Assembly: GCA_017527155.1 (NCBI GenBank)
Contig: JAFXQI010000027.1
Span: 12,628-76,627 of the forward strand
Direction: 5' to 3'
Source: Kiritimatiellia bacterium
GTDB lineage: Bacteria > Verrucomicrobiota > Kiritimatiellia > CAIQIC01 > Lenti-01
DNA length: 64,000 nucleotides
Shown here: piece by piece, positions 6,741 through 61,907 of the stretch
Layout: every line of letters starts with the position of its first letter
How positions within the stretch are numbered: position 1 is the stretch's first letter
The notes under the pieces: model-generated
The model's database searches: none
Seen by the model: the letters and a program-made list of their open reading frames with translations, nothing else
Told to the model about the DNA's origin: nothing
Made by a program: the position numbers and the translations under genes

Positions 6741-6804
6741 TTTTCCAATGGTTGGAAAAAAAGTTTCCAATGGTTGGAAAATTTTTTTCCAATGGTTGGA
6801 AAAC
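6741..6804. repeat. Array of 3 copies of the 19-bp palindrome TTTTCCAATGGTTGGAAAA with ~22-bp period, read as a candidate operator or protein-binding array
   Basis: Direct reading. It is AT-rich in GC-rich DNA. The same palindrome is arrayed at 47.6 kb and 57.4 kb. Confidence 0.7.
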
Positions 6805-39009: not shown

Positions 39010-39099
39010 GACACAAACCCTGTTACCCGGCGGGCGACGCACGCAACTATCGCACGAAACCCCGCGCGGCACAAACCAAATGGTGACCGGACGCCGATG

Positions 39100-45962: not shown

Positions 45963-47390
45963 ATGACCTACATCGCCTCCATCGGCCTCGAAGTCCACGT
46001 CCAGCTCAAGACGCGCACCAAGATGTTCTGCTCCTGCCCCGCGCACCGCGAAGACGACCCGCCGAACACCAACGTCTGCCCCGTCTGCCTGGGCCTGCCC
46101 GGCGCCCTGCCGGTACCCAACCGCGAAGCCATCCGCAAGACCGTCAAGACCGGCCTCATGATGGGTTCCACCATCTCCCTGCGCAGCCGCTTCGACCGCA
46201 AGAACTACTTCTATCCCGACATGCCCAAGAACTACCAGATCACCCAGCAGGAGCGCCCCCTCTGCATCGGCGGCGGCCTCGAGATCGAAGTCAACGGCAA
46301 AAAGAAATACATCCGCCTCAACCACATCCACCAGGAAGAAGACGCCGCCAAGATCACCCACCTCGAGCACTCCTCCGAGATCGACTACAACCGCGCTTCC
46401 ACCCCCCTCATGGAGATGGTCACCGAGCCCGACATGTCCACCCCCGACGAAGCCATCGCCTTCCTGACCGCCCTGCGCGAAATGCTCATCTATGCCGGCA
46501 TCAGCGAATGCGACCTCGAGCGCGGCCACATGCGCTGCGACGTCAACTCCTCCATCCGACCCGCCGGAACCGACCGCCTCGGCGTCAAGTGCGAGATCAA
46601 GAACATGAACACCTTCCGCGGCATCCACCGCGCCCTCGAGTACGAACTCCGCCGCCAGCAATCCGTCCTCGAGAGCGGCGGCACCCTCCGCCAGGAAACC
46701 CGCCGCTGGGACGACGAAGCCGGGGCCACCTTCCCCATGCGCTCCAAGGAATACGCCCACGACTACCGCTACTTCAACGAACCCGACCTCCCGCCCGTCG
46801 TCCTCGACCAGGCCACAATCGACCAATGGCGCACCGAGATCCCCGAACTCCCGCGCGCCCGCCGCGCCCGGTTCGTCGCCGACTACGGCCTGCCCGAATA
46901 CGACGCCGGCGTCCTGACCGCCGACCGTGCCATCGCCGACTGGTACGAAGCCGCCGCGCGCGCCTCCAAAAACCCCAAAGCCGTCTCCAACTGGGTCATG
47001 GGCGAACTCCTCCGAGCCCTGGGCGAAAAAGGCCTTTCCATCACCGACGCCAAGATCACGCCCGCCGCCCTGGCCTCCCTCCTCGACCTCCTCGACAAAA
47101 AGACCATCAACGGCCCGGCCGCCAAGGAAGTCTTCCAGATCCTCTTCGACCAGGGCGGCGACCCCGCCGAAATCGTGAAAGCCAAAGGCCTTGCCCAGGT
47201 CAGCGACACCGGCGCCATGGAAACCTTCGCCGAGCAGGCCATCGCCGCCAACCCCAAATCCGTCGACGACTACCGCAGCGGCAAACAAGCCGCCCTCATG
47301 TACCTGGTCGGCCAAGTCATGAAACTCTCCCGCGGCAAAGCCAACCCCCAGCTCGCCGCCGAAATCCTCCGCTCCAAACTCGCCCCGTAA
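45963..47390 (+). CDS. gatB: Aspartyl/glutamyl-tRNA amidotransferase subunit B
   Basis: MTYIASIGLEVHVQLKTRTKMFCSCP, and the C-terminal GatB/YqeY domain. Confidence 0.9.
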   Translation: MTYIASIGLEVHVQLKTRTKMFCSCPAHREDDPPNTNVCPVCLGLPGALPVPNREAIRKTVKTGLMMGSTISLRSRFDRKNYFYPDMPKNYQITQQERPLCIGGGLEIEVNGKKKYIRLNHIHQEEDAAKITHLEHSSEIDYNRASTPLMEMVTEPDMSTPDEAIAFLTALREMLIYAGISECDLERGHMRCDVNSSIRPAGTDRLGVKCEIKNMNTFRGIHRALEYELRRQQSVLESGGTLRQETRRWDDEAGATFPMRSKEYAHDYRYFNEPDLPPVVLDQATIDQWRTEIPELPRARRARFVADYGLPEYDAGVLTADRAIADWYEAAARASKNPKAVSNWVMGELLRALGEKGLSITDAKITPAALASLLDLLDKKTINGPAAKEVFQILFDQGGDPAEIVKAKGLAQVSDTGAMETFAEQAIAANPKSVDDYRSGKQAALMYLVGQVMKLSRGKANPQLAAEILRSKLAP

Positions 47391-47424: not shown

Positions 47425-47545
47425 CTTCCAGACAGGTGGGGCGAGCTCTCCGAGCGAGCCGTTCCAACCGATTGAGCGGCTCGCACGGAGTGCTCGCCCC
47501 ACCACGGGGCGGCCACCGCTCCAACGCCGTTCGCCGAAGCGGAAT
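47425..47545. repeat. 122-bp repeat containing the imperfect-palindrome hairpin element. It is the left copy of a direct-repeat pair.
   Basis: ~95% identical to 49265-49386: cttccagac-ggtggggcgagctctccgagcgagccgttccaaccg-ttgagcggctcgcacggagtgctcgccccaccacggggcggccaccgctccaacgccgttcg-cgaagcggaa. Confidence 0.8.
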
Positions 47546-47595
47546 CCGCCCCCGTTCCGTGCGCCTCCCCTGACGCATACCCGCCCCGGAAAATT

Positions 47596-47729
47596 TTTTC
47601 CAATCATTGGAAAACCGCCGAAAAATTTTTCCAATCATTGGAAAATTCCGGCCATTTTTTCCAACCATTGGAAAAATGTTTTCCAATCATTGGAAAACTG
47701 GCGTACAATTTTTCCGATCATTGGAAAAC
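47596..47729. repeat. Array of 5 copies of the 19-bp palindrome TTTTCCAATCATTGGAAAA with ~25-30 bp period, immediately upstream of a small ORF
   Basis: Direct reading. Same palindrome as at 6741-6804 and 57410-57513. Confidence 0.75.
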
Positions 47730-47740
47730 GGGAAACGGAC

Positions 47741-48052
47741 ATGGACAACAAGGAAACCGGGCAGGACCGGCCAGAGGGCAACTGGGCCGCGGACATGGGG
47801 GTGGGGTGTCTGCTGGATGTGGCGTTGCTGGTCGGGTTGGTGGTGGTGCTGGACTCGGACCGGGGCGCCCAGGCCATCGTCTACATGCTGTTGCTGGGAG
47901 TGCCGTCGCTGATCGCCCGCTGGCTCCTCCACCGGGCCGGCATCCTGCATCGGACGCTGGGCGGATGGGGCGGACGGCTGCTGGGACCGGGGTTCGTGCT
48001 GCTGGCGGTCGCGCTCGCGCATCTCGCGCCGTTGCCGCTGGAGGAGGACTGA
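47741..48052 (+). CDS. Small hypothetical membrane protein (103 aa)
   Basis: MDNKETGQDRPEGNWAADMGVGCLLDVALLVGLVVVLD... has two hydrophobic helices and starts directly after the palindrome array. It might be a shadow ORF. Confidence 0.35.
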   Translation: MDNKETGQDRPEGNWAADMGVGCLLDVALLVGLVVVLDSDRGAQAIVYMLLLGVPSLIARWLLHRAGILHRTLGGWGGRLLGPGFVLLAVALAHLAPLPLEED

Positions 48053-48132
48053 CCGGGAACCATGCACAACCGCTCCGACGGCAGAAAACAAGACGGCGGG
48101 CCACGGCGGCAACCGCAACGGAAAGGCGGAAC

Positions 48133-49230
48133 ATGAACAGGGATAAAACGCTGGATTGTCTCAGGGGCTTCGCGATGCTGCAGGTCGTGTTCGTCCATGC
48201 CATGTACTGGCTGTACTCCATCAAGCCGACCGTCGCCAGGTCCTTCCTGCTGTTCGAGATGCTGGTGTTCTTCTTCGTGACCGGCGCCGTCAACAGCATG
48301 AAGGAACACCGCTCCTACGGCGAATTCTGCCTCAAGCGCATCAAGGGGCTCATGATCCCCTATTACATCTACGCGGCCATCTGCATGGTGATTGCCGCCG
48401 TCTGCTACCGCAATGCCGGCGAATTCACGCCCGCGCTCGCGTTCCGGATGGTCCTCTCCTGGCTCGTTCCCCTCAACACCCAGATGATTCCCCTGTGGTT
48501 CTACCCCTGGGCCTTGTGGTTCGTTCCCGTCTACCTCCTCGGCATCCTCCTGTTCCCCCCCATCCGGAAAGCCGTCCGGCGGTTTGGATGGATGGCGATC
48601 GCCGCCATGGTCCTGCTTTTCGTCGCGGTGGAAATCGTGCTGCCCCTGGCGGTCCGGAACGTGCCCGGCGAAGGGGGCGGCCTCTACGTCCACCGGCTGT
48701 CCGACATCCTCCAGGAAACGGTCTTCTACTCCGTCTTCATGGCCGCCGGCGCCCTCCATTCCAGACTCAAGCTCCGGGAAAAGCGCGATGGGCTCCTGGC
48801 GCTGGCCATCCTGGTCCTCTCCGTGGCCGGACTGTGGATTTCGAGCTCCGTGTTCGGCCGGACGCTCGACATGCAGGAAAACAAGTTCCCTCCGAACCAC
48901 GTCTTCCTGTTCTACGCCTCCGCCGTCATGACGCTCCTGTATCTGGCGCTCCCGGTGCTGAAAACCCTCTACCGCCTGCTCGTCCGGGCCGTCCCGCCGG
49001 TGGACAAATGGATCGCCCTGTTCTCCGCGAACAGCATGACGGTGTTCCTCTACCAGCCGTTCGCCTTCTGGGGAACCTACCTCCTCCTGCGCCGGTACGG
49101 CCTGCGGAAGACCGCCTGGGAGCCGTATGCCGCCATCCTGCTGCTCTACCTGCTCGTGTGGCTCATCATCCTGCTCGCGAACCTCCTCAAGGCCGCGCGG
49201 AACGCCCTCGCCCGGCGCCTGGCCGGCTAG
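48133..49230 (+). CDS. Acyltransferase family 3 (OafA/OatA-like) integral membrane O-acyltransferase
   Basis: MNRDKTLDCLRGFAMLQVVFVHAMYW, ~10 TM helices, local GC lower (~60%). Confidence 0.7.
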   Translation: MNRDKTLDCLRGFAMLQVVFVHAMYWLYSIKPTVARSFLLFEMLVFFFVTGAVNSMKEHRSYGEFCLKRIKGLMIPYYIYAAICMVIAAVCYRNAGEFTPALAFRMVLSWLVPLNTQMIPLWFYPWALWFVPVYLLGILLFPPIRKAVRRFGWMAIAAMVLLFVAVEIVLPLAVRNVPGEGGGLYVHRLSDILQETVFYSVFMAAGALHSRLKLREKRDGLLALAILVLSVAGLWISSSVFGRTLDMQENKFPPNHVFLFYASAVMTLLYLALPVLKTLYRLLVRAVPPVDKWIALFSANSMTVFLYQPFAFWGTYLLLRRYGLRKTAWEPYAAILLLYLLVWLIILLANLLKAARNALARRLAG

Positions 49231-49264: not shown

Positions 49265-49386
49265 CTTCCAGACTTGGTGGGGCGAGCTCTCCGAGCGAGC
49301 CGTTCCAACCGTTTGAGCGGCTCGCACGGAGTGCTCGCCCCACCACGGGGCGGCCACCGCTCCAACGCCGTTCGTCGAAGCGGAAA
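49265..49386. repeat. Right copy of the 122-bp hairpin-element direct repeat
   Basis: See 47425-47545. Confidence 0.8.
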
Positions 49387-49468: not shown

Positions 49469-49927
49469 ATGAAAGACGACTTGCTATCGGCCCCCGTGGA
49501 AGGCGGAAGGGAAATCCTTTCGGGCCTGGCCGCCTGGTTGGCGGGACTCACGTGGGGCTACGCCCTCTTGACCGGGGACATGCTCTGGGAGCTGCGAGGG
49601 GGCGAATGGATGGTGGGCTGGCTGGGAGCGGTGTTCCTGCCGCCCGGCATGTCGGGCTGGGGCTGGCTGGCGTTCCCGTTCGAGCTCGTGATGCTGTACG
49701 GGGCGGTCTGGCGGGGATGGAACGCCTGTCTCGTGATCGGCCTGCTGGCGCTGGCGGCGGGGCTCCTCGCGCTCCCCGAATACGGCCCCTGGTACCTCCT
49801 GCGCCTGGTCCTGCCCTTGGTGCTCGTCCTTTTCGGCCTCGCCGTGGAGCGTGGCTGGTTCATCCCGCGCCGCCGTCCCCGTCCGCCCGCGCCGCCGTCC
49901 ACCGAAGAGGCGCCCACGGGCCGATAG
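49469..49927 (+). CDS. Hypothetical membrane protein
   Basis: 152 aa with 4 hydrophobic helices rich in W/G/L. No recognisable family. Confidence 0.4.
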   Translation: MKDDLLSAPVEGGREILSGLAAWLAGLTWGYALLTGDMLWELRGGEWMVGWLGAVFLPPGMSGWGWLAFPFELVMLYGAVWRGWNACLVIGLLALAAGLLALPEYGPWYLLRLVLPLVLVLFGLAVERGWFIPRRRPRPPAPPSTEEAPTGR

Positions 49928-49971: not shown

Positions 49972-50010
49972 CTTTCCCAGTGCGGACGCGCAGAAGCGCG
50001 TCCCTCCCCG
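49972..50010. terminator. GGACGCGC-AGAA-GCGCGTCC perfect hairpin within a 38-bp repeat, between convergent genes. Read as a likely bidirectional terminator.
   Basis: 8-bp GC stem with tetraloop. It has no U-tract, which is common in high-GC genomes. A second copy of the 38-bp repeat sits at 6578-6614. Confidence 0.4.
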
Positions 50011-50078
50011 AGCAGATAGCCCCACCTGCAAAACCGGTATGACCCGCCCTCCGGGAGGGCGGGCCGGTGCGGGATGCC

Positions 50079-50462
50079 TTACGGCAGGACGCGGAAGGAC
50101 TTGACGTCGATCTTCGGCGTCTCGAACATTTCCTTGTCCAGTTCGCCGGAGATTTCGAGGTTGGTTTCGGGCGTCACGGTGATGCCGCGCCATTCGTCGT
50201 CGTCGATTTCGACCATGACCGACCCGGTGGCATCCTGGAACGTGTACTTCTCGTCGCCCAGGCTGGCCACGATCCGGCCTTGCAGGACGACCCAGGAATC
50301 ATCGCGCTGCTTGAGCGCGTCCCGGACCGTCAGGGCGGAATTCCCGGGCCCCGGACCGGCGAACCCGCCGGGATTGGGATTGGCGAACCCGCCGCCCGTC
50401 TGCGCCTGGGCCGTTGCAACGACGGCAACCGCCGCAAAGAGAGCCATCATCGTTTTCTTCAT
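50079..50462 (-). CDS. BOF (YgiW/YdeI) family OB-fold periplasmic protein
   Basis: Signal peptide MKKTMMALFAAVAVVATAQA, then SWVVLQGRIVASLGDEKYTFQDATGSVMVEIDDDEW. Confidence 0.7.
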   Translation of the reverse strand: MKKTMMALFAAVAVVATAQAQTGGGFANPNPGGFAGPGPGNSALTVRDALKQRDDSWVVLQGRIVASLGDEKYTFQDATGSVMVEIDDDEWRGITVTPETNLEISGELDKEMFETPKIDVKSFRVLP

Positions 50463-50595
50463 GTCCGATCTCCTTGTTTTGTTTCGGATACGCCGCAACC
50501 CTAAAGCGACTCACTCCTCCCTGTCCAGATGAAAATGGAGCAGTTGGATCAAACGCCCGCCCTCGGATGGCTTCCTGGGCGCCCCGTCCGCGGCG

Positions 50596-53500
50596 TCACG
50601 TCCTGCGCAGGGTGAGGACGGGGAGAAGGATGGCGGATTCTTCGGTGGCGTCCTTGGCTTTCCAGGCGACGATGAAGCCGACGTGGGCTTCGCGGACGGC
50701 ATAGCCCCGGGCTTCGCGCTTGCGGATTTCGGCCAGGGCGGCCTTGGAGAGGCGGGCCACCCGCACGCCGGTGGCGGACACCAGGTCGCCGTCTTCGTAC
50801 GCCAGCGGGCTGCCGCTGCGGAGGCGGAAGATGTCCTTCTTGCGGTCCTTCGAGAAGTCCAGCCAGACGTCCTTGTGGGAAAGGTGCAGGGTGAGTTCGG
50901 GCGGTTCGGGATAGGGGGTGTCGTCCCGGAGGAAGCGGGCGCCGGGCGTCCGGCACGCCCCGAAGAGGCCGCTGTTGCAGTGGATGTACAGGCGGTTCCG
51001 GGCGCGGGTGATGCCGACGTAGAGCTTGCGCCGGGCGTCGTCGTCCGCCGCCGCTTCGTCCCGCAGCAGCATGTACACGGTGTCGAATTCCCGCCCCTTG
51101 GCCTTGTGGATGGTCGAGACGAAGACGGTCCCCTTGCCGCCGCCGCAGAAGTCTTCCAGCCTGGACTCGAAGGCGAATTCCCGCAAATCGCTCCGGTAGC
51201 GGATCCGCTGGACGCTTTCGAACTGCCGGAAGAACTCGCGGACGGCGTCGATGCAGGCGCTGTCGGCGTAGCGCGAAAGGGTTTCCTCCTTGGCTTCTTC
51301 CCATGCGTCGGCGCCGATGGCGGGCGTCGCGGTCTTCCGGTCGATGCGCCGGAGGAAGTATCGCACTTCGGCCAGGTCGGAGAACCGGAATCCGTCCACC
51401 GACTGGATGAGCCGCGCGGGAATGCCGGCCCGCGCCAGGGCGCCCGCCGCCTGGGCGGCTTCGTCGTTGGTGCGGACGAGGACGCAGGCGGTTTCGCCGC
51501 GCCAGGTGCTTTTCACCTGTTCGACGAGGGGCAGCACCATCTCCGCGGAGGCGTGCCGGACGATTTCCACCTCCCCGGGGTCGTCGCGGACGGCGATGCC
51601 CGGACGGCGCTTCATCCGGTTGCCGATGGTTTGGGCGAAGGCGTTGGCGAATTCGACGATGGCGCGGGCGCTGCGGTGGTTTTCGACCAGCTCGTAGCGG
51701 CCTTCCGGCCCGCCGCCGGCGAGCGCGGCCATGTAGCGGCTGTCGGAGCCGCGGAAGGCGTAGATGTTCTGGTCGTCGTCGCCCACGGCGATCACGCGCA
51801 TTTCCTCGTTGGCCCGCATCAGGGCCCGCACCAGGGCGTACTCGCCGGCGTCCATGTCCTGCGCCTCGTCGATGACCAGCACCGACTTGGCGATGCGGTT
51901 CGGCTCCACCCCGCCGCTTTCGATCAGCCGGACGGCCTCGCCGACCACGTCCCCGGCCTCTTCCAGGTTGCCGACGCGTCCCAGGAGGTCGAAGCTGTAG
52001 GAGTGGAAGGTCTTGATTTCGACGAAGTGGGCGGCGTTGCCGACGAGGTCGAGCAGGCGGCGCTTGAATTCGGTGGCGGCGGCGCGCGAGAAGGTCAGCA
52101 TGAGCAGCTGCTCGTGCTTGACGTCTTCGAGCAGCAGCAGCGAGGCGAGCTTGTGGACCAGGACGCGGGTCTTGCCGCTGCCGGGGCCGGCGGCGACGAC
52201 GATGCGCGCCGACCGCTTGTCGCCGATGATGGCCCGCTGGGTGTCCGAGAGCGCGCCTAAGAGCTGTTGGTGCTTGCGCGGGGTGATGTTCCTGCCGATT
52301 TCCGCCAGGCGATCGCCCTTGAAGTACTTGGCGATGAACTTGCGGAAATCCATCTGGAAGTAGTCCCGCACGTACCGCAGGGCGGCGGCGTAGTCCTTCA
52401 CCATCAGGTTGGCGTATTCGCCGACGATGTGGATCTGCCGGATCTTCTGCTTGTAGAACTCGTCGAGCATCCGGTAGTCCTCGACCTTGTACCGGTTTTT
52501 CATGTCGGCGAGACGGTGGATTTCCATGGCGTTGTAGATGACCAGGAAGCCGCCCTCCAGCTTCATGGCGCCGATTTTCGAGAGGTAGAGCAGCGCGTCC
52601 TCGATTTCGTCGATGCGGAAGGGGCCGCCCTCGGCGAACAGCGCGCGTTCCCGCCGCGCGGAGAGTTTCTCCAGCAGCTCCGTGACCGAGAACTGGATCG
52701 GCACCGCCCCGCCGCCGCCGCCGGAACCGGACGCGGCGCCGGCCGGCGCGTGGAGTTCGTGGACGGCGAAGCGGCAGATTCCGATGCGGCGGGCCTGTTG
52801 CCGGAGCGTCCGCTCCGCATCCAGCGCCGTCACCATGCGGAGCCGCCCCGTAGCGGCGTCTTCCTGCTTGCGGATGATGGATTTGACGGTCAGGAAGTAG
52901 AGGAGCGTGCGGATGTTTTTCACCGAACTGCCGGCGATGCCGCCTTCGAGGGCCCGCTCGTTGAGGGCCTTGAGGGTCAGGTCGGCCTCCTGCCGGGCGA
53001 TCTCGCCGAGCAGGAAGCGCTCGAGCGCGGCGAAGCGTTCCAGGGTCCTGGAGGTGGCGGCCTCCGAGCGGTCGATCCAGGCGGACAGGTCGCGCGAGTC
53101 GGCGAGGATGCCTTCCTGGCGCATGCGGGTGATGGCGCCGATGACGGCGGCCTTGTCCAGCCCGAGGATGTCGGCGAGGTAGTCCACCCGCGAATCGGCT
53201 TCCCCGTCCTGCCGCGCCCCGGCGATCTGCTTGCTCGAAATCAGCGACTTGATGATCCGGATGGCGTCCTGCCGCCCCCCGTCGTCGAACAGGGGCGATT
53301 CCGCGATGCGGCGGCGCGCCTCGTCCATGTTCCGGACCATGATGCCGGTGGCGAAGACGTGCGGGACGTTGTTGCCGCGGCGCACGTAGCCGGCCTCCTC
53401 CAGGGCGGCGACGGCGGTCCGCACGCGGGTCTCGACGTCCGGCACCTCGTCGTTCCAGCCCGCCTGCCGCGCGATTTCGAGGGCGCTGCAGGCCACCTGC

Positions 53501-55452
53501 GGGCGCTGGCGGGTGAGGGTCTTGATGGCGCTCCAGACCTGCTGGATTTCGCTCAGGCTCAGCTTGGTCTGGTTGAGCAGGATGAAGTGCTTGTCCAGGT
53601 CCTGGTCGCTGTAGAGCACGTGGCACTTGGCGGAGGTCTGCGGGTCGCGGCCGGCACGGCCGGCCTCCTGGACGTAGTTTTCGAGCGAGTCGGAGATGTC
53701 GTAGTGCACCACCAGGCCCACGTCCTTCTTGTCCACGCCCATGCCGAAGGCGGACGTGGCGACGATGGCGCGGACTTCGTTGAGGATGAAGGCGTTCTGG
53801 TTCGCGATCTTCTCGGCGGGGTCCATCTTGCCGTTGAACGGCAGCGCGGGGATGCCGTCCCGCGTCAGCTTGTCCGCGAGGTCGCGCGTCCGCTTCGTGC
53901 GCGAGACGTACACGATGGCCGGGCATCCGCCGCCGAGCAGCAGGCTGCGCAGGTGCCGGTACTTCTCCTCCTCGGTGTCCGCGTGGATGACCGAATACTG
54001 CAGGTTTTCCCGGGTGGCGGACGACGCGAAGAGCCGCAGGTCCAGCCCCAGCTTCGCCCGGAAGTAGTCGCGGATGTCGGAGACCACCTTCTGCTTCGCC
54101 GTCGCCGTGAAGCACGAGACGGGAATCGCCGCACCCTCCCCCTTCTTCTCCCGCAGCTTGCGGATGAAGTCGCCGATGTAGAGGTAATCGACGCGGAAAT
54201 CCTGCCCCCACGCGGAAAAACAGTGCGCCTCGTCGATGACGAACCGCACCACGTTGCGCGAGAGCAGCAGCTTCTCGACCGTCTTCGACCGCAGCATTTC
54301 CGGCGAGATGTACAGCAGCGACGCCGATCCGTCCGCCACCCGCCCGATCGCCTCCGCGCGGCTCAGCGGGTCGAGCAGGCCGTTGACGGTGACCGCTTCC
54401 GTGACGCCCCGCGCCGCCAGGTTGTCCACCTGGTCCTTCATCAGCGACTGCAAGGGCGAAATGACCACCGTCAGGCCGTGCACCGCCCGCCCCTGCATGA
54501 GCGCCGGCAGCTGGAAGGTGAGCGACTTGCCGCCGCCCGTCGGGAAAATGGCCAGCAGCGACTCGCCGTCCACCGCCGCCTGCACCGCCCGCTCCTGCAT
54601 GGGCTCGCCGTCGAAGAGGCGGAAGGCGTCGTAGCCGAAGATGCTCCGCAGCCCCTTGTGGATGTCCAGCTTGTCGCGGCAGTACGCGCACCCTTCCCGG
54701 CAGGGCGTGCCGCACAGGGCCTTCAGGACATGCTCCACGCGCGGGAATTGGTGCAGCACCCACGGCGGCGTCGCGGAACTCCCGTCGCCCGTGTTGACCA
54801 GCGCCAGCGCGTAGGCCAGTTCGCGCGGCATGGCGTCCGCGAGCCCCGCCAGGTCCGCGTGGGCGCAGATCCGCCCCGCGAAGGCTTTTTCGACGAGATC
54901 CGCGGCATCCCCACCGCCTGGCGCCATCCCCAGGAAGGCGAAAAACCCGCCGAACTCCTCGAAGGGCGACAGCAGCGCGCGGAAAACCGCCTGCAACTCC
55001 CCCGGCAGCGCCCGGAATGCATTCACCTCGTCGAAGAAAAGGTCCCGCGCCTTCTTCGCGTCGTTGAGCGGATTGTTCAGCTCCTCGGTCTGCAGCTTGT
55101 CGTCCTTCAGCAGCCGGTGGTAGGGCCGTTTCGGGAACAGGAGGGGCGAAAGATACAGCGTGTCGATGGCCGGTTTGCCGCGGATTCCCGGAACGGGACC
55201 CGCCAGGTACTTCAAATCGTGGTGCACGATGTTGTGCCCGCAGAGGAACCCGGCGCCGGCCGTGAACCGCGCGAACTCCGCCGCCGAAGCCGTGTGCAAC
55301 TTCCGGTTCGCCCCCTGGCACGCCCCGTAATCATGGATCCGCCCGTCCGCCACCCCGACTTCGACATCGATGAACGCGACCTCGTCGAACCGCCCGCCGC
55401 CGTCCCCGCCCAACGCCTTGTTGCCCTGCACTTCCATGTCGCACCCGTCCAT
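50596..55452 (-). CDS. ~1,618-aa tri-domain protein: N-terminal DnaQ-like DEDDh 3'-5' exonuclease + RecQ-family helicase core + C-terminal UvrD/Rep-like SF1 helicase
   Basis: Exo motifs FIDVEVGV (I), GHNIVHHDLKYL (II), NPLNDAKKA (III). RecQ motifs LAIFPTGGGKSLTFQLPAL and VIDEAHCFSAWGQDFR. SF1 motifs VVAAGPGSGKTRVL, VIDEAQDM, VENHRSARAIV, TIHKAKGREFDTVYML, LYVGITRARNRL. Confidence 0.8.
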   Translation of the reverse strand: MDGCDMEVQGNKALGGDGGGRFDEVAFIDVEVGVADGRIHDYGACQGANRKLHTASAAEFARFTAGAGFLCGHNIVHHDLKYLAGPVPGIRGKPAIDTLYLSPLLFPKRPYHRLLKDDKLQTEELNNPLNDAKKARDLFFDEVNAFRALPGELQAVFRALLSPFEEFGGFFAFLGMAPGGGDAADLVEKAFAGRICAHADLAGLADAMPRELAYALALVNTGDGSSATPPWVLHQFPRVEHVLKALCGTPCREGCAYCRDKLDIHKGLRSIFGYDAFRLFDGEPMQERAVQAAVDGESLLAIFPTGGGKSLTFQLPALMQGRAVHGLTVVISPLQSLMKDQVDNLAARGVTEAVTVNGLLDPLSRAEAIGRVADGSASLLYISPEMLRSKTVEKLLLSRNVVRFVIDEAHCFSAWGQDFRVDYLYIGDFIRKLREKKGEGAAIPVSCFTATAKQKVVSDIRDYFRAKLGLDLRLFASSATRENLQYSVIHADTEEEKYRHLRSLLLGGGCPAIVYVSRTKRTRDLADKLTRDGIPALPFNGKMDPAEKIANQNAFILNEVRAIVATSAFGMGVDKKDVGLVVHYDISDSLENYVQEAGRAGRDPQTSAKCHVLYSDQDLDKHFILLNQTKLSLSEIQQVWSAIKTLTRQRPQVACSALEIARQAGWNDEVPDVETRVRTAVAALEEAGYVRRGNNVPHVFATGIMVRNMDEARRRIAESPLFDDGGRQDAIRIIKSLISSKQIAGARQDGEADSRVDYLADILGLDKAAVIGAITRMRQEGILADSRDLSAWIDRSEAATSRTLERFAALERFLLGEIARQEADLTLKALNERALEGGIAGSSVKNIRTLLYFLTVKSIIRKQEDAATGRLRMVTALDAERTLRQQARRIGICRFAVHELHAPAGAASGSGGGGGAVPIQFSVTELLEKLSARRERALFAEGGPFRIDEIEDALLYLSKIGAMKLEGGFLVIYNAMEIHRLADMKNRYKVEDYRMLDEFYKQKIRQIHIVGEYANLMVKDYAAALRYVRDYFQMDFRKFIAKYFKGDRLAEIGRNITPRKHQQLLGALSDTQRAIIGDKRSARIVVAAGPGSGKTRVLVHKLASLLLLEDVKHEQLLMLTFSRAAATEFKRRLLDLVGNAAHFVEIKTFHSYSFDLLGRVGNLEEAGDVVGEAVRLIESGGVEPNRIAKSVLVIDEAQDMDAGEYALVRALMRANEEMRVIAVGDDDQNIYAFRGSDSRYMAALAGGGPEGRYELVENHRSARAIVEFANAFAQTIGNRMKRRPGIAVRDDPGEVEIVRHASAEMVLPLVEQVKSTWRGETACVLVRTNDEAAQAAGALARAGIPARLIQSVDGFRFSDLAEVRYFLRRIDRKTATPAIGADAWEEAKEETLSRYADSACIDAVREFFRQFESVQRIRYRSDLREFAFESRLEDFCGGGKGTVFVSTIHKAKGREFDTVYMLLRDEAAADDDARRKLYVGITRARNRLYIHCNSGLFGACRTPGARFLRDDTPYPEPPELTLHLSHKDVWLDFSKDRKKDIFRLRSGSPLAYEDGDLVSATGVRVARLSKAALAEIRKREARGYAVREAHVGFIVAWKAKDATEESAILLPVLTLRRT

Positions 55453-56159
55453 TCGCCCCAAGAAGCTACAAGGAGAGCCCGCCCCCCGTCAACGCCATTT
55501 GCCCCGCTTTCGCCTTGGGGCCAAGTCGACCTCGGAAAGGAGGAATGCCGGAGCGCGGGCGGCCCGCCCGCTTTCCTTTCGCAAATCGACCGCATCCCCT
55601 CACTATCCCCTCCCTTCCGCCCCACTCCCAAGGCCCCATGGTTTTCCATGGTGGTGAGGATGCATGGAATCATGGAGAAAACAAGGGGTTTCCCGTAATT
55701 GCAAATGAGTCTCCCCGGCCTCCGTTTTGTGGTCCGGGCGGCAAGCGGGAGGAAAGAACCGACATGGATGTCTCGAATGCCGCTTCGCGGACACGAATGG
55801 CTTCTACGAGGAAGGGTGGATTGTGTAAGTGAAAGCGGGCGGGCTGGGAGCGCGGGCGTCCCGCCCGCGAAGCTTTTGGAAAGGGGAAAACAAGCGAAAA
55901 GGCCCATGTTTTCCATAATCTCGCATCCAGCGGCGCGGCTGAAAGACCGTACCGCATCTTTTCACTTTTCACTGGTCACTTGTCACTGCGCCCGAAGGGC
56001 GCTACGGCATCCTGCCGCGCCCTTGCGGATGGAGAGCGGGAGGGGAGAAAAAGACAAACAGGACACAGGGGACAAGGTTGCGGGAGGGGAGAGGGAGGGA
56101 TGGGGAAGCGGGCAGGCCGCCCGCGTTCCGATAAAGGGGACTTGAAGGGAAACAGGCCG

Positions 56160-56993
56160 CTACTTCAGGTATTTGCGGGTGCCGACTTCGGAGAGGATGC
56201 GCATTTGCTGGATGGCGATGGCATTGAGTTTCTGCAGGCGCTGGGACTGGGGGAGGCCGTCGTGGATCAGGACGGCATTGATGTTTTCCAGGTTGGATAG
56301 GCAGATGAGCTGGTCGACGGTGGCATGGTCGCGCTGGTTGCCCTTGAGGGAAGGATTCGCTTCCTGCCACTGCCGGTGGGTTTGTCCGAAGAGGGCGACG
56401 TTGAGCACGTCCGCTTCGCTGGCGTAAATGACGCTCGTCTGGGCACGGGAAACGGCGGGCGGCACGAGATTGCGCAGGATGGCGTCGGTGTGGATGCGGT
56501 AGTTGATCTTGGCGAGTTCTCGCTTGGCCGACCAGCCGACGAGTTCCTGCTCCCGGGCTTTGAGGCGCTGGAATTCCCTGACGATGTAGATCTTGAATTC
56601 CGCCGAAATCCACATCGCGAACTCGAAGGCAATGTCTTTGTGCGCGAATGTCCCGCCATAACGCCCGGCCCTCGAAACCAGGCAGGCGGCGTTCGTGCGT
56701 TCCGTGAATTCCTGCACCCCGATCTTGAAGGAGTGGAGGCCAGCCTGGTTTCTAATTGTGGCGAATTCGCCATAATTGAAGGCCGGGTTGTAGATGCGTT
56801 CCCAGATGCCGATGTACTCCAGGGTATTGCGGTTGCGCAACCAGTCCGTGATGAAAAACTCGCCATCCTTCGCCTTGAGCATGTCGGTGAGGCAGATGTA
56901 GTCTTCGTCCCCGACTTTGGCCACGCGGACAAGGGTGCCGCGGATGTCGAGTTCTCCCGAGGTCTTTGGTGGCATGTTCGTGGGCTTTTGCAT
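56160..56993 (-). CDS. KilA-N domain-containing protein (phage/plasmid-type DNA-binding domain)
   Basis: LVRVAKVGDEDYICLTDMLKAKDGEFFITDWLRNRNTLEYIGIWE is the KilA-N fold. The gene is ~56-58% GC against a ~70% background. Confidence 0.8.
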   Translation of the reverse strand: MQKPTNMPPKTSGELDIRGTLVRVAKVGDEDYICLTDMLKAKDGEFFITDWLRNRNTLEYIGIWERIYNPAFNYGEFATIRNQAGLHSFKIGVQEFTERTNAACLVSRAGRYGGTFAHKDIAFEFAMWISAEFKIYIVREFQRLKAREQELVGWSAKRELAKINYRIHTDAILRNLVPPAVSRAQTSVIYASEADVLNVALFGQTHRQWQEANPSLKGNQRDHATVDQLICLSNLENINAVLIHDGLPQSQRLQKLNAIAIQQMRILSEVGTRKYLK

Positions 56994-57268
56994 GATTGGA
57001 ACTTTTCTGGATTCTTGGGGATGGCGTTGGGCGGCATCATGGCATGTTCCGTACTGGGTTCAAGCATAAAAGAGAACGTTTAGACAACAAATCGGGATTG
57101 TACGCAACGGTGCAGGTTCCGCAATGCGGGGAGAGCGCTGCAGGCGGGGAGTGGGCGTGGCTGAAAGCCGCACATCCCGAGTGGGGGATTGCAGTGGGGG
57201 GATTGGAGAGCAAGGGCGGGCCGTCCGCGTTCCGACCAAAAAGGCGAGGCGCCCGCGGGCCGGCGGGG

Positions 57269-57355
57269 TCACTCGTCGGGCATGGCGGCTTCGATGCGGT
57301 TGTCGAAGAGGGTGCAGTCGGCGAAGAAGTCGAGGCGGACTTCGCCGGTGGGGGC
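57269..57355. other. Displaced duplicate of the dnaB 3' end (last ~28 codons + stop), ~85% identical to 60501-60587. Read as an att-like target duplication.
   Basis: tcactcgtcgggcatggcggcttcgatgcggttgtcgaagagggtgcagtcggcgaagaagtcgaggcggacttcgccggtggg versus the dnaB end. The translated fragment PTGEVRLDFFADCTLFDNRIEAAMPDE matches PTGEVRLNFFADYTRFDNRIETASPDE. Confidence 0.75.
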
Positions 57356-57409
57356 GTCGATCCCGGCTTGGGTTTTGCACAATCCGGCAGCCCGGCGGGG
57401 GAGGGCGGG

Positions 57410-57513
57410 TTTTCCAATGATTGGAAAAAATTTTTCCAATGGTTGGAAAAAATGGGACGGATTTTCCAATGGTTGGAAAAAATTTTCGCGCATTTTCCAA
57501 TGATCGGAAAAGT
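57410..57513. repeat. Array of 4 copies of the 19-bp palindrome TTTTCCAAT(G/C)RTYGGAAAA
   Basis: Direct reading. Third array of this family. Confidence 0.75.
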
Positions 57514-58157
57514 TTTTCGGGTCGTTTTTGGGAAACAAAAGGAACAAAGGGGGCAACAAAACAAGGGGTGGACAAGGAATGTCAGACAATCATGACCATT
57601 TCCGGCAATTCATCGAGAAGGCAACTTGGACAACTACAAGAATGTCTCGAATGCCGCTTTGCGGACTTGAATGGCTGGGAGACGGGAGGAATGCCTACAT
57701 GAAAACAAAGAAAACCGCTTGGCGGACAGGAACGCTTGGAGGGCGGATGGGGGGAGACAACTTGGAGACGGAAAGGGGCGGAGCCTTTTTCCCGGGGCGC
57801 GGCTGAAAGCCGCTCCTCCCAACCGCGGGCGGGACGCCCGCGCTCCCAGTGAGCGCGGCTGGAAGCCGCACATCCGGAGGAGGGGGGTGGGAGGGATTTC
57901 AGCCGCAAAGGACACAAAGGGCACAGAGGGGGGGGAGGCGGGAGGGAGGCGGATGGACCGTCGGGGGGAAAAAGGGGGCAGAGCGCGAAACACCCGACCC
58001 TTGGAAAACTCCCGCGCGGGGACGGGATTCGGGCTTGCCAGGCAACGGTTGTTTTGGGTAAAAGAGCGGCGTGTACAGGAAATCCGGAAATGGAGGAAAG
58101 CCCGTGGATTTGAAGGCGAAATGGAATCGGTGGAGGCCGGTCGGGAGCGCGGAAACG

Positions 58158-60032
58158 ATGGCGGCGGGGCTGGCGCTTTGGTTCGCCGCGGTGAGCGTGC
58201 TGTTCGCGACGCCGATGGCCGTCGAGGGAATCGGCGGGACACGGGCGTTGTGGCCGATGGGGGTCGGTGTCGTCACGGGGGGCTTGCTGGGCGGGGCGGG
58301 CATGCTTTTCGCGGCATTCGGCGGAGGGGGGTTCGCGGTGGAGGAGTACGGGCGCAAGCGCGGCGGATGGAGGGTCTTGGCGTGGTGGCTGGCCGGGGCG
58401 CTGCCGGCGTTGGTGCTGGGATGCGCCTGGAACGGGGTTCTGGCGGCGCCCGCGGCGTGGCGCCGGGGGGACCGTCGCGGGACGGCGGCGGCGGCGGCGG
58501 GAGCGGTGTTGCTGGGCGGGGTCGCGCTGGCAACCCGTTTTTCCCGCGATGTGCGGGCGGGCGCGTGGCCGGTGCCGCTGTGGGCGGTAACGGCGCTCAA
58601 CGCGGTCTCGGCGGCCCTGCTGCTGCGGGGGCTGTGGCGTTTGGGCGGCCGCGCGGATTTCCTGCGGCGCACGGCGTGGACGATGGCCGCGCTGGCGGCG
58701 GCGGGGCTGGCGCTCTGGCCGGGATGGCGCGTCGGGCGGCAGGTCCGCCGCGCGGAGGATGCGATGGCGGTGCTTTGGGCGGAGACGGAATGGCCGGGCG
58801 GTCGGGCGATGCCGCCGGTGGCGGAAGCGGACGACCCCGTGGCGGCCCTGGATGCCACCGCGCTGGAGGCCTCGGAGGGCGAATGGCGCCGCTTCGCGGA
58901 GGAGCTTGATGCCGGACGGCGTCCCGGATGCCCGGCTTACCCGCTGGCGGACGCCGAGTGCGCGGCGGCGGAGGCGTGGCTCGCGGCGCATCCGGACGCG
59001 CTGGGGAAGGCGGTGGCGGTGTCGTCTCCCGGCTACCGCTCGTGCCTGCCGGGCGCGGCGGCGCCGGAGGATTACGGTCCCGCAGGCATCGCCTGGCTGG
59101 AACCGCGGCTGGACGGCTGCCTGGACTGGTGCCGCCCGCTCCTGCTCCGGGCGGCGGTGGCGCTGGCGCGGGGCGATACGGCGGCGGCCATGACGGACAT
59201 CCGGCTCGTCCATTCGCTGGCGGAGCGGCTGATGGGCGAGGGGTGCTTCATCGGACAGCTCATGGGGGTTGCCGTGGCGGACATGCTGCCCGCCGTGGCC
59301 GGACAGCGCTTCGACCTCTGGACGGACGGCGAACTGGAGGCGCTCGCGGCTCTCGCCGGCTCGTATGCCGGTGCGGCGGAGCGTTCGTGGCGGCTGGCGG
59401 TCGGAAACGAGGCGGCGTTTTTCGACGGGTGCCTGCGGGTGGTCGAAGCGGACTTCGCCAAAACCGGCATCGTGGACATCGACGGGGAGAAGGCGGAGGG
59501 GATGCGCATGGAGTCGCCTACCGCGCCGCGGCCGTCGCAGGATTTCGTGGCGTTCCGGCACTGGATGGCGACCGAGCGGCTGGCGTACGCCCGCGGGCTG
59601 CTGCGCCTGCATCGGTCCCTCGCGGCGGCGCTGGCGCTTCCGGCGGGGCCGGAGCGGGCGGCCGCGCTCTCCGCGCTCAAGGCCGACGCCGGGGAAACGG
59701 AAAAGCGCCTGCCGCATCTCGCGGCGTTGTGTTTTCCGACCGTGGACGGCTTCGTGAACCTGGGAACGCACGGCGGAAACCACGCGTCGGCCATGCGCGC
59801 CGCGGTGGCGGTGGAGCGCTGGCGGCGGACCCACGGCGGGGCGCTGCCGGAGTCGCTGGAGGTGCTGGTCCCGGACTGGCTGGACGCGGTGCCGTCCGAC
59901 GGGGAACTGGGCGCCCCGATGCATCTCGAAAAAGGGGAGGACGGGCGGAGCTTCGCAATCCGGCGCCCGGAGGGTGCCGGGTGGCGGCAGTTCAAGGGGT
60001 GGTTTCGGGTGGGTGGGGGTCAAGGTCTCTAG
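58158..60032 (+). CDS. Hypothetical membrane protein with a large soluble C-terminal domain. The start is uncertain (GTG 58071 or ATG 58158).
   Basis: N-terminal TM helices (AAGLALWFAAVSVLFATPMAV; WRVLAWWLAGALPALVLGCAWNGVLAAPAAW). Third-position GC codon bias is on the + strand, and the overlapping minus ORF is an Arg-rich shadow. It ends in the CTAG palindrome. Confidence 0.5.
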   Translation: MAAGLALWFAAVSVLFATPMAVEGIGGTRALWPMGVGVVTGGLLGGAGMLFAAFGGGGFAVEEYGRKRGGWRVLAWWLAGALPALVLGCAWNGVLAAPAAWRRGDRRGTAAAAAGAVLLGGVALATRFSRDVRAGAWPVPLWAVTALNAVSAALLLRGLWRLGGRADFLRRTAWTMAALAAAGLALWPGWRVGRQVRRAEDAMAVLWAETEWPGGRAMPPVAEADDPVAALDATALEASEGEWRRFAEELDAGRRPGCPAYPLADAECAAAEAWLAAHPDALGKAVAVSSPGYRSCLPGAAAPEDYGPAGIAWLEPRLDGCLDWCRPLLLRAAVALARGDTAAAMTDIRLVHSLAERLMGEGCFIGQLMGVAVADMLPAVAGQRFDLWTDGELEALAALAGSYAGAAERSWRLAVGNEAAFFDGCLRVVEADFAKTGIVDIDGEKAEGMRMESPTAPRPSQDFVAFRHWMATERLAYARGLLRLHRSLAAALALPAGPERAAALSALKADAGETEKRLPHLAALCFPTVDGFVNLGTHGGNHASAMRAAVAVERWRRTHGGALPESLEVLVPDWLDAVPSDGELGAPMHLEKGEDGRSFAIRRPEGAGWRQFKGWFRVGGGQGL

Positions 60033-60284
60033 ATATCTGGAGCCGGAAAGGGTCTGGCTCCTTTCCCCTGCGTTTCAAGCACTGGGAGGACGGGCGCCCT
60101 CGCCCGTCTTCGTGCATGGGGCGCGCAAAAGGGGCGGCCCGGATGCCAGTTGGAGAAGGCCCAAAGGGAAAGGCAAGGAAAAGAGGCCGGACTCCGAATC
60201 AGGTCCATTTCTCCCGTTATCCAGCCGTTTCCTCGCGGGCGGGAGGCTGGCGCTTTGGCAGGCCGGGCGCCTCCCTTTCGCTTT

Positions 60285-60357
60285 GGACGGGCGGGGGCGC
60301 CCGTCCTCCCAGTTCTGGGGCATCCCTTGCGCTTGGGACGGGCGGGGGCGCCCGTCC
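60285..60357. terminator. Two tandem GC-rich perfect hairpins (GGACGGGCG-GGGG-CGCCCGTCC) between a convergent hypothetical gene and dnaB
   Basis: Hairpins at 60285-60306 and 60336-60357 within ~50-bp tandem direct repeats (cgctttggacgggcgggggcgcccgtcc). Confidence 0.4.
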
Positions 60358-60500
60358 CCCCAGTCCGGGAGGGGCATTTGCAATTACGGGAAAAGCTGGG
60401 GTTTTCTGGGATTTTGGGGCATGGAAGAGGCCATGAAAATGTGCGGCCTGCCGGTGGGGGGTGGATGGGGAAGCGGGCGGGGTGGCCGCGCGCCGGCGGG

Positions 60501-61907
60501 TCACTCGTCGGGGGAGGCGGTTTCGATGCGGTTGTCGAAGCGGGTGTAGTCGGCGAAGAAGTTGAGGCGGACTTCGCCGGTGGGGCCGTTGCGGTGTTTG
60601 GCGACGTCGACGATGGCCAGGGTCAGGTCGTCGCTGTCTTTGCCTTCTTTGTAGTAGCTGGGACGGCGGAGGAGGAAGACGATGTCGGCGTCCTGTTCGA
60701 TGGCGCCGGAGTCGCGCAGGTCGGAGAGTTTGGGGATGGCGTCTTTTCCGCGGCTTTCGGGGGCGCGGGAGAATTGGCTGAGCACCAGGACGGGGACCTG
60801 GAGTTCCTTGGCCATGGCTTTGAGGTTCTGGGAGATGGCAGCGGTTTCCTGCTGGCGGCCGTCGCGGGCGCGAGCGGAGCAGTTCAACAGCTGGAGGTAG
60901 TCGACGACGATGAATTCGATGCCGTATTTGCGCTTGAGGCGGCGGGCGCGGGAGCGGAGTTCTTCGACTTCGAGGCCGGCGGTGTCGTCGACGTAGATGG
61001 GGGCGCGGGAGAGTTCGTCGGCGGCCTGGACGAGCTGGGCGTGGTCGCCGGCGCCGAGGCGTCCGGTGGAAAGGTCCTTGGCGGAGACGTGGGCGCGGCA
61101 GCAGATCATGCGGCGGACGAGGGCTTCGGCGGACATCTCCAGGCTGAAGACGGCGACGGGGCGGACGGGCTGGCGGCGGGCGCCGGTGGCGACGTTTTCG
61201 GCGATGTTGAGGGCAAGGGAGGTTTTGCCCATGGAGGGACGGGCGGCCAGGATGAGGAGGTCGCTCTTTTGCATGCCGAGGAGTTTGGCGTCGATGTCGA
61301 CGAAGCCGGTGGAGATGCCGGTGAGGGACTTTTTTTCGGAAAGGAGGCGCTCGGCTTCGACCATTTCCTGTTTGACGAGGTCGCGCCAGGGTTTTTCGGT
61401 GCCGGCACGGTTTTCGGAGAGGGCGAAGAAGGCGGATTCGGCGCGCTCGAGGACGCCTTCGGCGCCGAGGTCGGCGCGGTAGCAGGATTCGGTGACTTCG
61501 CGGGCGGCGTCGAGGACGCGCCGGAGGAGGTGGTTTTCGAAGACGCGCTTGATGTAGTATTCGGCGTAGGCGACGGAGGTGGCGCGGGAGACGATGGCCA
61601 GGAGGGCGTCTTCGCCGCCGGCGGCTTCGAGGCGCCCGGTCTGGGTGAGGTGTTCGACGAGGGCCGGGATTTCGAGGGGGCGGTGGGCGGCCGCCATCTC
61701 GAGCATGGCTTCGTAGATGGTGCGGTGGCCGCTGAGGTAGAAGGATTCGGGGACGAGTTGGTGGACGCGGCAGAGGTCGAGCATGGTCTCGGGGTCGAGG
61801 AGGACGGCCCCGAGGGCGATGGCCTCGGCTTCTTCGCTGTAGGGCGGGAGCAAAGCGCCGGGACGGGCGGCCGAAGCCTCCCGTCCCGTTGGGTCCGGAA
61901 TGGACAT
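60501..61907 (-). CDS. dnaB: Replicative DNA helicase
   Basis: N-terminal domain PPYSEEAEAIALGAVLLDP, Walker A ARPSMGKTSLALN, IVVDYLQLL, QFSRAPESR. Confidence 0.9.
   Translation of the reverse strand: MSIPDPTGREASAARPGALLPPYSEEAEAIALGAVLLDPETMLDLCRVHQLVPESFYLSGHRTIYEAMLEMAAAHRPLEIPALVEHLTQTGRLEAAGGEDALLAIVSRATSVAYAEYYIKRVFENHLLRRVLDAAREVTESCYRADLGAEGVLERAESAFFALSENRAGTEKPWRDLVKQEMVEAERLLSEKKSLTGISTGFVDIDAKLLGMQKSDLLILAARPSMGKTSLALNIAENVATGARRQPVRPVAVFSLEMSAEALVRRMICCRAHVSAKDLSTGRLGAGDHAQLVQAADELSRAPIYVDDTAGLEVEELRSRARRLKRKYGIEFIVVDYLQLLNCSARARDGRQQETAAISQNLKAMAKELQVPVLVLSQFSRAPESRGKDAIPKLSDLRDSGAIEQDADIVFLLRRPSYYKEGKDSDDLTLAIVDVAKHRNGPTGEVRLNFFADYTRFDNRIETASPDE

Follow-up and report, generated by a model that had tools for sequence, protein, structure and literature searches.

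A giant exonuclease-fold–RecQ–UvrD-type helicase gene adjoins a probable insertion hotspot at the 3' end of dnaB in a rumen Kiritimatiellia lineage

Genes and features of the locus

The locus described here lies on contig JAFXQI010000027.1 of a rumen Kiritimatiellia lineage, within a stretch of 64,000 nt and 68.4% GC that we call the window. All coordinates are window positions unless a strain label is given, and L007, L008, L009, L065, L069, L070 and L074 are labels for compared assemblies or loci. On the minus strand, a giant helicase–nuclease open reading frame (ORF; 50596–55461) is followed by a strain-variable intergenic stretch rich in GCGGGC-N-GCCCGC hairpins (55502–56159), a KilA-N gene (56160–56993, minus strand), a 3.1-kb segment inserted between two copies of the dnaB 3' end (57358–60497) and dnaB itself (60501–61907, minus strand). 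Most likely, two separate things adjoin here, namely a resident helicase gene and a mobile hotspot at the end of dnaB. The arrangement was matched by five independent assemblies from five samples at 99.94–99.98% identity over the parts covered, and the DnaB of the window is 99% identical to those of the metagenome-assembled genome RGIG6903 (sheep rumen) and of RUG11196.

Domain architecture of the giant helicase

The giant ORF encodes 1621 aa from a TTG start. Gene callers on a 99.98%-identical assembly began at the ATG at 55437, giving 1613 aa, and this ATG is likely the true start. The 40 nt upstream of the gene (55462–55501, minus strand) are common to L007 and L065; a promoter-like element, TTGACG...TAGCTT, was read in them by eye, and a sigma-70 consensus scan of 50000–61000 reported none. 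The GC content of the gene (67.7%) and that of its third codon positions (GC3, 0.92) are host-like.

Two complete motors were recognised in the protein. Pfam placed DEAD and Helicase_C at residues 287–605 and UvrD-helicase, AAA_19 and UvrD_C at residues 1074–1496, with UvrD-helicase (115.6 bits) and UvrD_C (84.2 bits) both above their gathering scores. Membership of the first motor in the RecQ family was indicated by the NCBIfam model TIGR00614 (recQ_fam), which scored 257.6 bits against a cutoff of 219.8. The RecQ-type superfamily 2 (SF2) core spans residues ~271–615 (53617–54651, minus strand) and contains GxGKS, DEAH, the aromatic loop and motif VI, and the compact UvrD/PcrA-type superfamily 1 (SF1) core spans residues ~1071–1497 (50971–52251, minus strand), contains motifs I–VI and is short at ~425 aa. 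Motif conservation was judged across 120 homologs, among which every SF2 and SF1 motif was present and nearly invariant. Neither motor scored as a canonical ortholog: TIGR01389 gave 296 against 640 bits and PRK11057 gave 227 against 1015, and of the SF1 equivalog models PcrA gave 128 against 911 and UvrD 115 against 1144, with Rep and helicase IV likewise far below their cutoffs. RecQ_Zn_bind, RQC and HRDC were absent among the Pfam matches of the protein.

Residues 1–285 had no Pfam or PDB-sequence match, and a family profile of the N-terminal domain reached the PolC exonuclease domain with an E-value of only 0.11. An AlphaFold2 (AF2) model of this domain, built with 39 homologs, was confident (predicted local distance difference test score, pLDDT, of 84.8) and had a DnaQ-like RNase H fold; Foldseek searches with the model returned the DnaQ-like fold, with weak E-values. 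The predicted DnaQ/DinG-like 3'–5' exonuclease fold covers residues ~26–150 (55012–55386, minus strand). In it, ExoI (F-I-D-x-E), ExoII (C-G-H-N-I-x-x-H-D) and ExoIII (N-N-P-L-N-D-A) are recognisable and correspond to the PolC exonuclease motifs. Of the four acidic residues, two (D82 and D134) show no variation, and conservation reaches at least 90% at D32 and E34. The catalytic His (H-x4-D, five residues before the last Asp) is replaced by an invariant Asn129 in NNPLNDA. Based on the model, the fold and metal ligands are those of a DnaQ-like exonuclease, with activity predicted at most.

The order of exonuclease, RecQ and UvrD domains proposed in an earlier sequence-only reading of the window was therefore real, as judged by the Pfam and NCBIfam motors and the N-terminal exonuclease fold. 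That reading had also ascribed complete motifs to all three domains; this held for the SF2 and SF1 motifs, but the description of the N-terminal domain as a complete DEDDh exonuclease was wrong, because the canonical His is the invariant Asn129.

Outside the three named domains, a helical region (residues ~151–270; 54652–55011, minus strand) carries invariant C199, C254, C258 and C261 ahead of the RecQ core, a Cys4 cluster that forms a putative zinc site. The linker (residues 621–1070; 52252–53601, minus strand) was modelled with a pLDDT of 73 as several winged-helix-like modules of generic type, followed by a helical connector. The C-terminal domain (residues ~1498–1621; 50599–50970, minus strand) had no assigned fold, and its ~125 residues gave no significant Pfam match (best E 0.31) despite their conservation. 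No specific Pfam or NCBIfam model was found for the N-terminal, linker or C-terminal parts.

A variant of the gene was observed in L070. There, a KilA-N gene and the first 1,237 helicase codons, identical to those of the window, are followed from position 15245 of L070 (equivalent to window position 51749, helicase residue ~1237) by a divergent 3' part. The helicase product has 1625 aa, and another gene lies downstream. The switch points to a recombinant allele or to a chimera in the metagenome assembly.

Size, spread and neighbourhoods of the helicase family

The best 120 homologs listed are ~1,580–1,720 aa long and 60–98% identical, and the named members among them belong to Bacteroidales or Salinivirgaceae and are annotated as 'RecQ family ATP-dependent DNA helicase'. 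When 1.84 billion representatives were searched with the N-terminal domain alone, at least 1,256 clusters at 50% identity were returned (198 at E ≤ 1e-30), in which nearly all complete proteins measure 1,580–1,750 aa. More than 1,000 such clusters keep one ~1,600-aa architecture across phyla. The giant helicase represents a variant of known helicase kinds with an architecture of its own, and databases already list thousands of such proteins under a generic name; no paper on this exonuclease–RecQ–SF1 architecture was found in the literature.

Members of the family were found in Bacteroidota, Kiritimatiellia and Proteobacteria. Relatives over the full length are annotated in Bacteroides finegoldii, Phocaeicola massiliensis and Aliarcobacter cibarius, and matches with 71–80% query coverage occur on replicons of Rhizobium, Paracoccus, Sulfitobacter, Microvirga, Croceicoccus and Thiothrix. 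Among phage genomes there was no full-length relative, and only 12 of 2.9 million IMG/VR contigs had helicase matches, about 5 of these 12 at contig ends. A phage origin of the helicase was rejected on these two grounds.

Gene neighbourhoods were surveyed at 86 loci (80 metagenome loci and six further ones) by calling ORFs and clustering the neighbours, and the largest neighbour family was present at no more than five loci. Annotation was performed for 150 immediate (±2) neighbours from ~55 loci, as raw counts, and no Pfam or PADLOC family occurred more than three times. Most neighbours were of housekeeping types (glycosyltransferase, HSP70, deformylase, AhpC, TonB, OEP and rhomboid), and a few were DNA-repair proteins (NUDIX_4, a MutY-type NUDIX; RecD2; RecQ). 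At four loci with relatives at 61–76% identity, the helicase stood alone in unrelated neighbourhoods. GajA, the Dpd cluster (dpdA–K) and PsyrA were absent beside the helicase in the window, and none of them recurred in the ~55 loci. As no neighbour family recurs, we regard the helicase as a stand-alone unit around which defence genes are not conspicuous.

The sole recurrent immediate neighbour was a ~184-aa family, found directly next to the helicase at 4 of the 86 loci and too rare to count as a partner. It includes a 242-aa ORF which, together with a Bro-N protein, lies immediately upstream of the helicase homolog in the Salinivirgaceae-type locus L074 (4257–5983 of L074).

Position of the helicase gene across strains and its origin

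The helicase gene is kept in two strain arrangements. In L007 (~99% relative) and L065 (~98%), the order is prs(−), porin(+), helicase(+), with the helicase beyond the prs end of the prs-L25-pth-rpsF-ssb-rpsR-rplI-dnaB block and diverging from it. Homology between L065 and the window is restricted to 55501–50588, from 40 nt upstream of the helicase start to 8 nt past its stop. In L065, a palindrome array comes straight after the helicase, and the BOF, 152-aa and acyltransferase genes are missing. The adjacency of helicase and dnaB hotspot is specific to the arrangement of the window's strain.

The helicase shares 62–63% identity with Bacteroidales proteins, in contrast to only 38% for DnaB, and in the helicase loci of other lineages the GC content of the gene lies below that of its flanks. 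Since the GC and GC3 values in the window are in turn host-like, the gene was probably transferred into the lineage from Bacteroidota in the distant past, after which its composition would have converged on that of the host.

The sequence-only reading had placed the helicase on an integrative island, with the KilA-N gene as fellow cargo. The direct repeats at the dnaB end exclude the helicase, its GC3 is host-like, and L007 and L065 place it beside porin and prs. The readings as island cargo and as partner of KilA-N are unsupported, because the repeats exclude both genes, no neighbour recurs and the family spans phyla. A vertically conserved core gene at syntenic positions, which the same reading had named as the contrary outcome, was not seen either, as the loci of relatives are non-syntenic.

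Two inversions were tried as the link between the strain arrangements and discarded. One via the 113-nt inverted palindrome arrays (47586–47698 and 57409–57521; a third array lies at 6741–6803) does not reproduce the L007/L065 order. For a two-breakpoint inversion between the strain types, the misfits are truA versus porin beside prs and the SBP/PHP genes beyond the L007 cassettes.

Evidence for serial insertion at the dnaB 3' end

The current 3' end of dnaB forms the proximal of two direct repeats (60498–60589, minus strand) and has the element-type ending ...IETASPDE*. The distal repeat (57266–57357, minus strand) is the displaced native 3' end, which terminates in ...IEAAMPDE* and shows three amino-acid changes. 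The two are 91% identical over 92 nt, which confirms the duplicate of ~85 bp (~85% identity) reported in the sequence-only reading. The distal repeat is the sole extra dnaB-end copy in the window. It had been taken as a boundary of a helicase/KilA-N segment; instead, the repeats bracket the segment at 57358–60497, which contains a 653-aa ORF.

Every dnaB-end copy starts at one and the same dnaB position, ~88 nt before the stop codon. The ending ...IEAAMPDE* of the displaced copy is that of the functional dnaB in L007 and L008, whereas the functional dnaB of the window carries ...IETASPDE*. Next to the displaced copy lies the native downstream flank of dnaB with a terminator-like hairpin (57207–57265, minus strand), which resembles the post-dnaB sequence of L008. 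In L008, a native-type flank comes directly after dnaB and is followed by a PIN gene, and this locus resembles an unoccupied site. In L009 (70% relative), bamA follows dnaB.

L007, a 99% relative, has three co-oriented dnaB-end copies downstream of dnaB, with different cargo between them. The window duplicate and the second L007 copy have a common upstream arm, which includes an array of the palindrome TTTTCCAATSRTYGGAAAA and is 91.6% identical over 239 nt. In the window, this array consists of four palindromes at the element end (57410–57511), and in L007 it also lies beside the second dnaB-end copy. The insertion units are small, at 1.5–4.7 kb.

Direct repeats of the target end, a regenerated gene end and relatives with empty or differently occupied sites, as expected of an integrative element, were all found, and an integrase of its own was not. 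No integrase or recombinase domain was detected in the scanned window ORFs (1–4084, 23146–26719 and several mid-size ORFs lay outside the scan), and the insert and the L007 ORFs that were scanned had none either, in agreement with the earlier remark that no integrase was visible. Tandem insertion at this site had likewise been proposed in the sequence-only reading. Based on the common start point, the L007 copies with varied cargo, the L008 flank and the swapped gene ends, the comparisons support the 3' end of dnaB as a genuine hotspot of insertion, with serial Campbell-type integration that would regenerate the gene end. No report of dnaB as an attachment site was found in the literature.

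In mechanistic terms, each insert would bring ~88 nt of dnaB-end homology and a conserved arm with the palindrome array, regenerate the gene end and displace the native one; in the window, the unit would be 57358–60497. Integration would take place in trans, in keeping with the scan of the window ORFs.

The cargo ORF of the window unit (58071–60032, plus strand; 653 aa, or 624 aa as called elsewhere) is a near-orphan. It had no family match and only four homolog clusters among 5.8 billion proteins, two of which lie elsewhere and do not adjoin dnaB. Its GC content is 73.8% overall and 72–77% locally, and by eye its translation is hydrophobic at the N-terminus. A 74-aa 'gene' called in identical assemblies at 57269–57493 (minus strand) results from reading the relic C-terminus of DnaB on through the palindrome array and is probably a pseudo-ORF.

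The cargo of the L007 cassettes (11460–17779 of L007) is of the small defence- or toxin–antitoxin (TA)-like type. One unit encodes a DUF1016/YhcG PDDEXK nuclease, a protein with zinc ribbon and bPH domain and further ORFs, and the next encodes an AAA_14-DUF4143 ATPase. The cassettes also carry a 395-aa ORF with a faint match to the N-terminal part of the RnlA toxin.

KilA-N gene, hairpins and palindrome arrays

The KilA-N gene encodes 277 aa (Pfam E = 1.1e-22) and has a GC content of 58.8%, against 68.4% for the window. Its product matched the PADLOC model PDC-S22 over its full length (E 3.3e-119; residues 14–274 to profile positions 6–271 of 281). PDC systems are untested predictions obtained by 'guilt-by-embedding' (bioRxiv 10.1101/2024.01.29.577857). 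Relatives at 52–70% identity lie on 23 IMG/VR contigs, and the gene is absent from L007 and L065. These comparisons support KilA-N as probable variable phage-related cargo distal to the native dnaB end, and the description of this low-GC gene as phage-type cargo in the sequence-only reading was borne out by its composition, its viral relatives and the PDC-S22 match. KilA-N was rejected as a functional partner of the helicase: it is not among the recurrent neighbour families of the ~55 loci, where its co-occurrence with the helicase had been suggested as a check, and L007 and L065 lack it.

The three related junction sequences noted around KilA-N and the insert were identified as real GC-rich hairpins (56088–56130, 57207–57242 and 60453–60495), with further copies at 55550, 55847 and 57824. 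They are concentrated in 55.5–60.5 kb. A perfect-stem hairpin pattern gave four matches against 1.0 expected, all in 55.5–57.9 kb. The hairpins were also considered as attC sites of an integron-like cassette array; this idea was dropped, as no IntI and no R'/R'' consensus was seen.

The palindrome TTTTCCAATSRTYGGAAAA is 19 nt long and occurs in arrays of 3–5 copies with 22- or 31-nt spacing, amounting to 24 strand-hits against 0.01 expected. Arrays are located at 6741–6803, 47596–47728 and 57410–57511 in the window, at 15961–16073 in L007 and ~100 nt past the helicase stop in L065. One of them makes up the arm conserved among the dnaB-end inserts; the remaining arrays occupy unrelated sites between genes. 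The array could be a candidate protein-binding module, for a recombinase or a regulator, or a MITE-like repeat.

Interpretation and alternative explanations

The best-supported description of the helicase is a resident, stand-alone member of a widespread, uncharacterised exonuclease–RecQ–winged-helix–SF1 family. We consider it stand-alone and housekeeping-like because its contexts are heterogeneous, no neighbour recurs, no full-length phage match was found and its GC3 is host-like. Starting from the observed architecture and distribution, we lean slightly towards genome maintenance as its most likely role, with activities and substrates predicted from sequence.

The helicase would be a chromosomal enzyme acting on branched or 3'-tailed DNA, with a DnaQ/DinG-like exonuclease fold, Cys4 cluster, RecQ SF2 motor, tandem winged helices, UvrD-type SF1 motor and C-terminal domain in this order. 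The winged helices would hold the duplex or branch point, and the RecQ motor would unwind in the 3'→5' direction. The SF1 motor would translocate on the released single strand or strip bound proteins, and, as in WRN or Firmicute DinG, the 3' end might be trimmed or held by the N-terminal domain. Beyond the native dnaB end, KilA-N would be further variable cargo.

Several observations weigh against this picture. The exonuclease domain may be weak or non-catalytic, as Asn stands where the catalytic His would be. With 3'→5' movement expected of both motors, their cooperation is hard to explain. No simple inversion accounts for the rearrangement between the strain types. As to the hotspot, the scanned ORFs contained no integrase, and a RecA-mediated single crossover of circular DNA with dnaB-end homology would fit as well as site-specific recombination and cannot be distinguished from it. 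In the PADLOC search, the RecQ part matched best to DpdF (3e-94) and PsyrT and the SF1 part to GajB (1e-44), all of them matches to generic domains. Defence- or TA-like genes are few among the neighbours (YafQ/RelB, AAA_14-DUF4143, NERD, Bro-N and PDC-S01/S07), and the non-syntenic positions, horizontal transfer and plasmid copies would equally fit an accessory gene directed against mobile genetic elements (MGEs).

The PADLOC matches and the non-syntenic positions, transfer and plasmid copies favour a single-gene anti-phage or anti-plasmid defence enzyme, which would engage foreign DNA ends or replication intermediates with its two motors and exonuclease and break them down or unwind them. Here the transfer would be taken as the cross-phylum spread of a defence gene, and the adjacency of KilA-N and hotspot would mark a defence island, as the helicase adjoins a PDC-S22 candidate and a variable hotspot that in relatives carries defence- or TA-like genes (DUF1016 nuclease, AAA_14-DUF4143 and PIN). 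However, no PADLOC model spans the whole protein, the matches being to generic helicase cores, and the neighbours at ~55 loci are mostly housekeeping genes without a recurrent defence family. The best 120 homologs retain at least 60% identity over 1,600 aa, and such high conservation is atypical of fast-evolving defence genes. Moreover, both strain arrangements retain the helicase, in contrast to the variable cassettes beside it, and its codon use is host-like. We regard a defence function as the less likely reading.

A more far-reaching proposal would see in the helicase an unrecognised single-chain, dual-motor immune or anti-MGE effector that has spread horizontally through bacteria of the gut, the rumen and the environment. 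Independently of this, the 3' end of dnaB would host a new class of small, integrase-less cassettes, with the 19-nt palindrome array as recombinase-binding module. We hold this combination to be rather unlikely.

A service to mobile replicons, in plasmid or integrative and conjugative element (ICE) replication or in the processing of conjugation intermediates, with chromosomal copies as remnants, appears improbable. On the Aliarcobacter plasmid pACIB, the helicase gene adjoins parA/parB, rep and a DnaB-like gene; a Bacteroides finegoldii record with the helicase near SSB and ParA/ParG genes was deposited as a plasmid; and homologs lie on several alpha-proteobacterial megaplasmids or chromids. 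Yet most copies lie on contigs that are long, look chromosomal and have no plasmid or conjugation genes close by, and of the 387 plasmid records with any helicase match, 300 are typed non-mobilizable.

Finally, a two-gene module delivered by the island to the dnaB 3' end, with KilA-N as DNA-binding sensor or regulator and the helicase as effector, is very improbable: although the genes are adjacent and co-oriented in the window and the five identical assemblies, and a Bro-N protein lies two genes upstream of the helicase at one distant locus, strains without KilA-N keep the helicase, KilA-N is no recurrent neighbour, a hairpin-rich spacer of ~700 nt intervenes, the helicase may have its own promoter (the element read by eye, which the scan did not report), the two GC contents differ (58.8% versus 67.7%) and the direct repeats enclose neither gene.

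Comparison with known systems

Like WRN, the giant protein combines an exonuclease fold and a RecQ motor in one chain, in this case a bacterial one. In contrast to WRN, it has Asn at the catalytic Tyr/His position, lacks detected Pfam domains for RecQ zinc binding, RQC and HRDC, with a Cys4 cluster upstream of the core instead, and adds a complete SF1 motor and a C-terminal domain. With DinG of Firmicutes (S. aureus and B. subtilis) it shares the fusion of a DEDD-type exonuclease fold to a helicase, but the DinG motor is XPD-like SF2 and not RecQ, DinG has no second motor, and the identity is ~16%. The motors resemble RecQ and UvrD/PcrA/Rep in their complete motifs and in scores above the TIGR00614 and Pfam UvrD gathering cutoffs, whereas they fall far below the equivalog cutoffs of the canonical enzymes and place both activities in one polypeptide. 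In concept, RecBCD and AddAB likewise combine two motors and a nuclease in one machine on DNA ends; these pair SF1A with SF1B and a PD-(D/E)xK nuclease, and the giant protein has SF2 and SF1A with a DEDD-fold nuclease in a single chain. For GajB (Gabija), DpdF (Dpd) and PsyrT (PsyrTA), the resemblance is confined to hidden Markov model matches at the domain level, with no full-length model and with the partner genes absent from the window and not recurring in the ~55 loci.

For the hotspot, the closest parallels are tandem integrative elements at the 3' ends of housekeeping genes, such as the SCC elements at rlmH/orfX. SGI1 is described in one published account as integrating at trmE (PMC8409611). 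Target-end direct repeats, an element-regenerated gene end, tandem arrays with varied cargo and some units without a recombinase are common to these elements and the dnaB inserts. The latter differ in that the target is dnaB, no integrase or Ccr-like gene was seen, and the 1.5–4.7-kb units have a palindrome array at one end. The hotspot would thereby add a replicative-helicase gene to the targets of 3'-end integration, and it points to strain-level cargo turnover in an uncultured rumen lineage.

Because the helicase family is abundant in gut and rumen Bacteroidales, what it does matters for genome stability or MGE control in dominant commensals. It could serve in repair, fork rescue, anti-recombination or MGE restriction, and the coupling of SF2 and SF1 motors in one chain offers a natural experiment for biochemistry.

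Further features of the window

Beyond dnaB, rplI (61941–62429, minus strand) is followed by rpsR, ssb and rpsF on the minus strand, rpsR being assigned by position and synteny with L069. The window also encodes dnaA, recC, recD, mnmE and mnmG, for which reason the region is probably near the replication origin; a gene-strand switch at ~39.3 kb suggests an oriC. The genes recD, recC and dnaA fall in 21391–30340 and 37612–39072. With recB presumed between recD and recC, the genome has RecBCD besides the giant helicase. No tRNA genes were present in the window, and an Rfam scan of 47–64 kb yielded nothing beyond miRNA-hairpin noise below threshold.

On the other side of the helicase lie gatA (44337–45854), gatB (45963–47390), an acyltransferase_3 gene (47638–49230) and a 152-aa membrane ORF (49469–49927), all on the plus strand, followed by a BOF gene (50079–50498, minus strand), for which an exact-protein look-up gave no match. 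Two 110-nt element copies (47435–47544 and 49276–49385), 98% identical and each with an internal inverted repeat of ~30 nt, lie on either side of a palindrome array and the acyltransferase_3 gene. L065 lacks the genes from BOF through the acyltransferase, and this block may be another small insertion.

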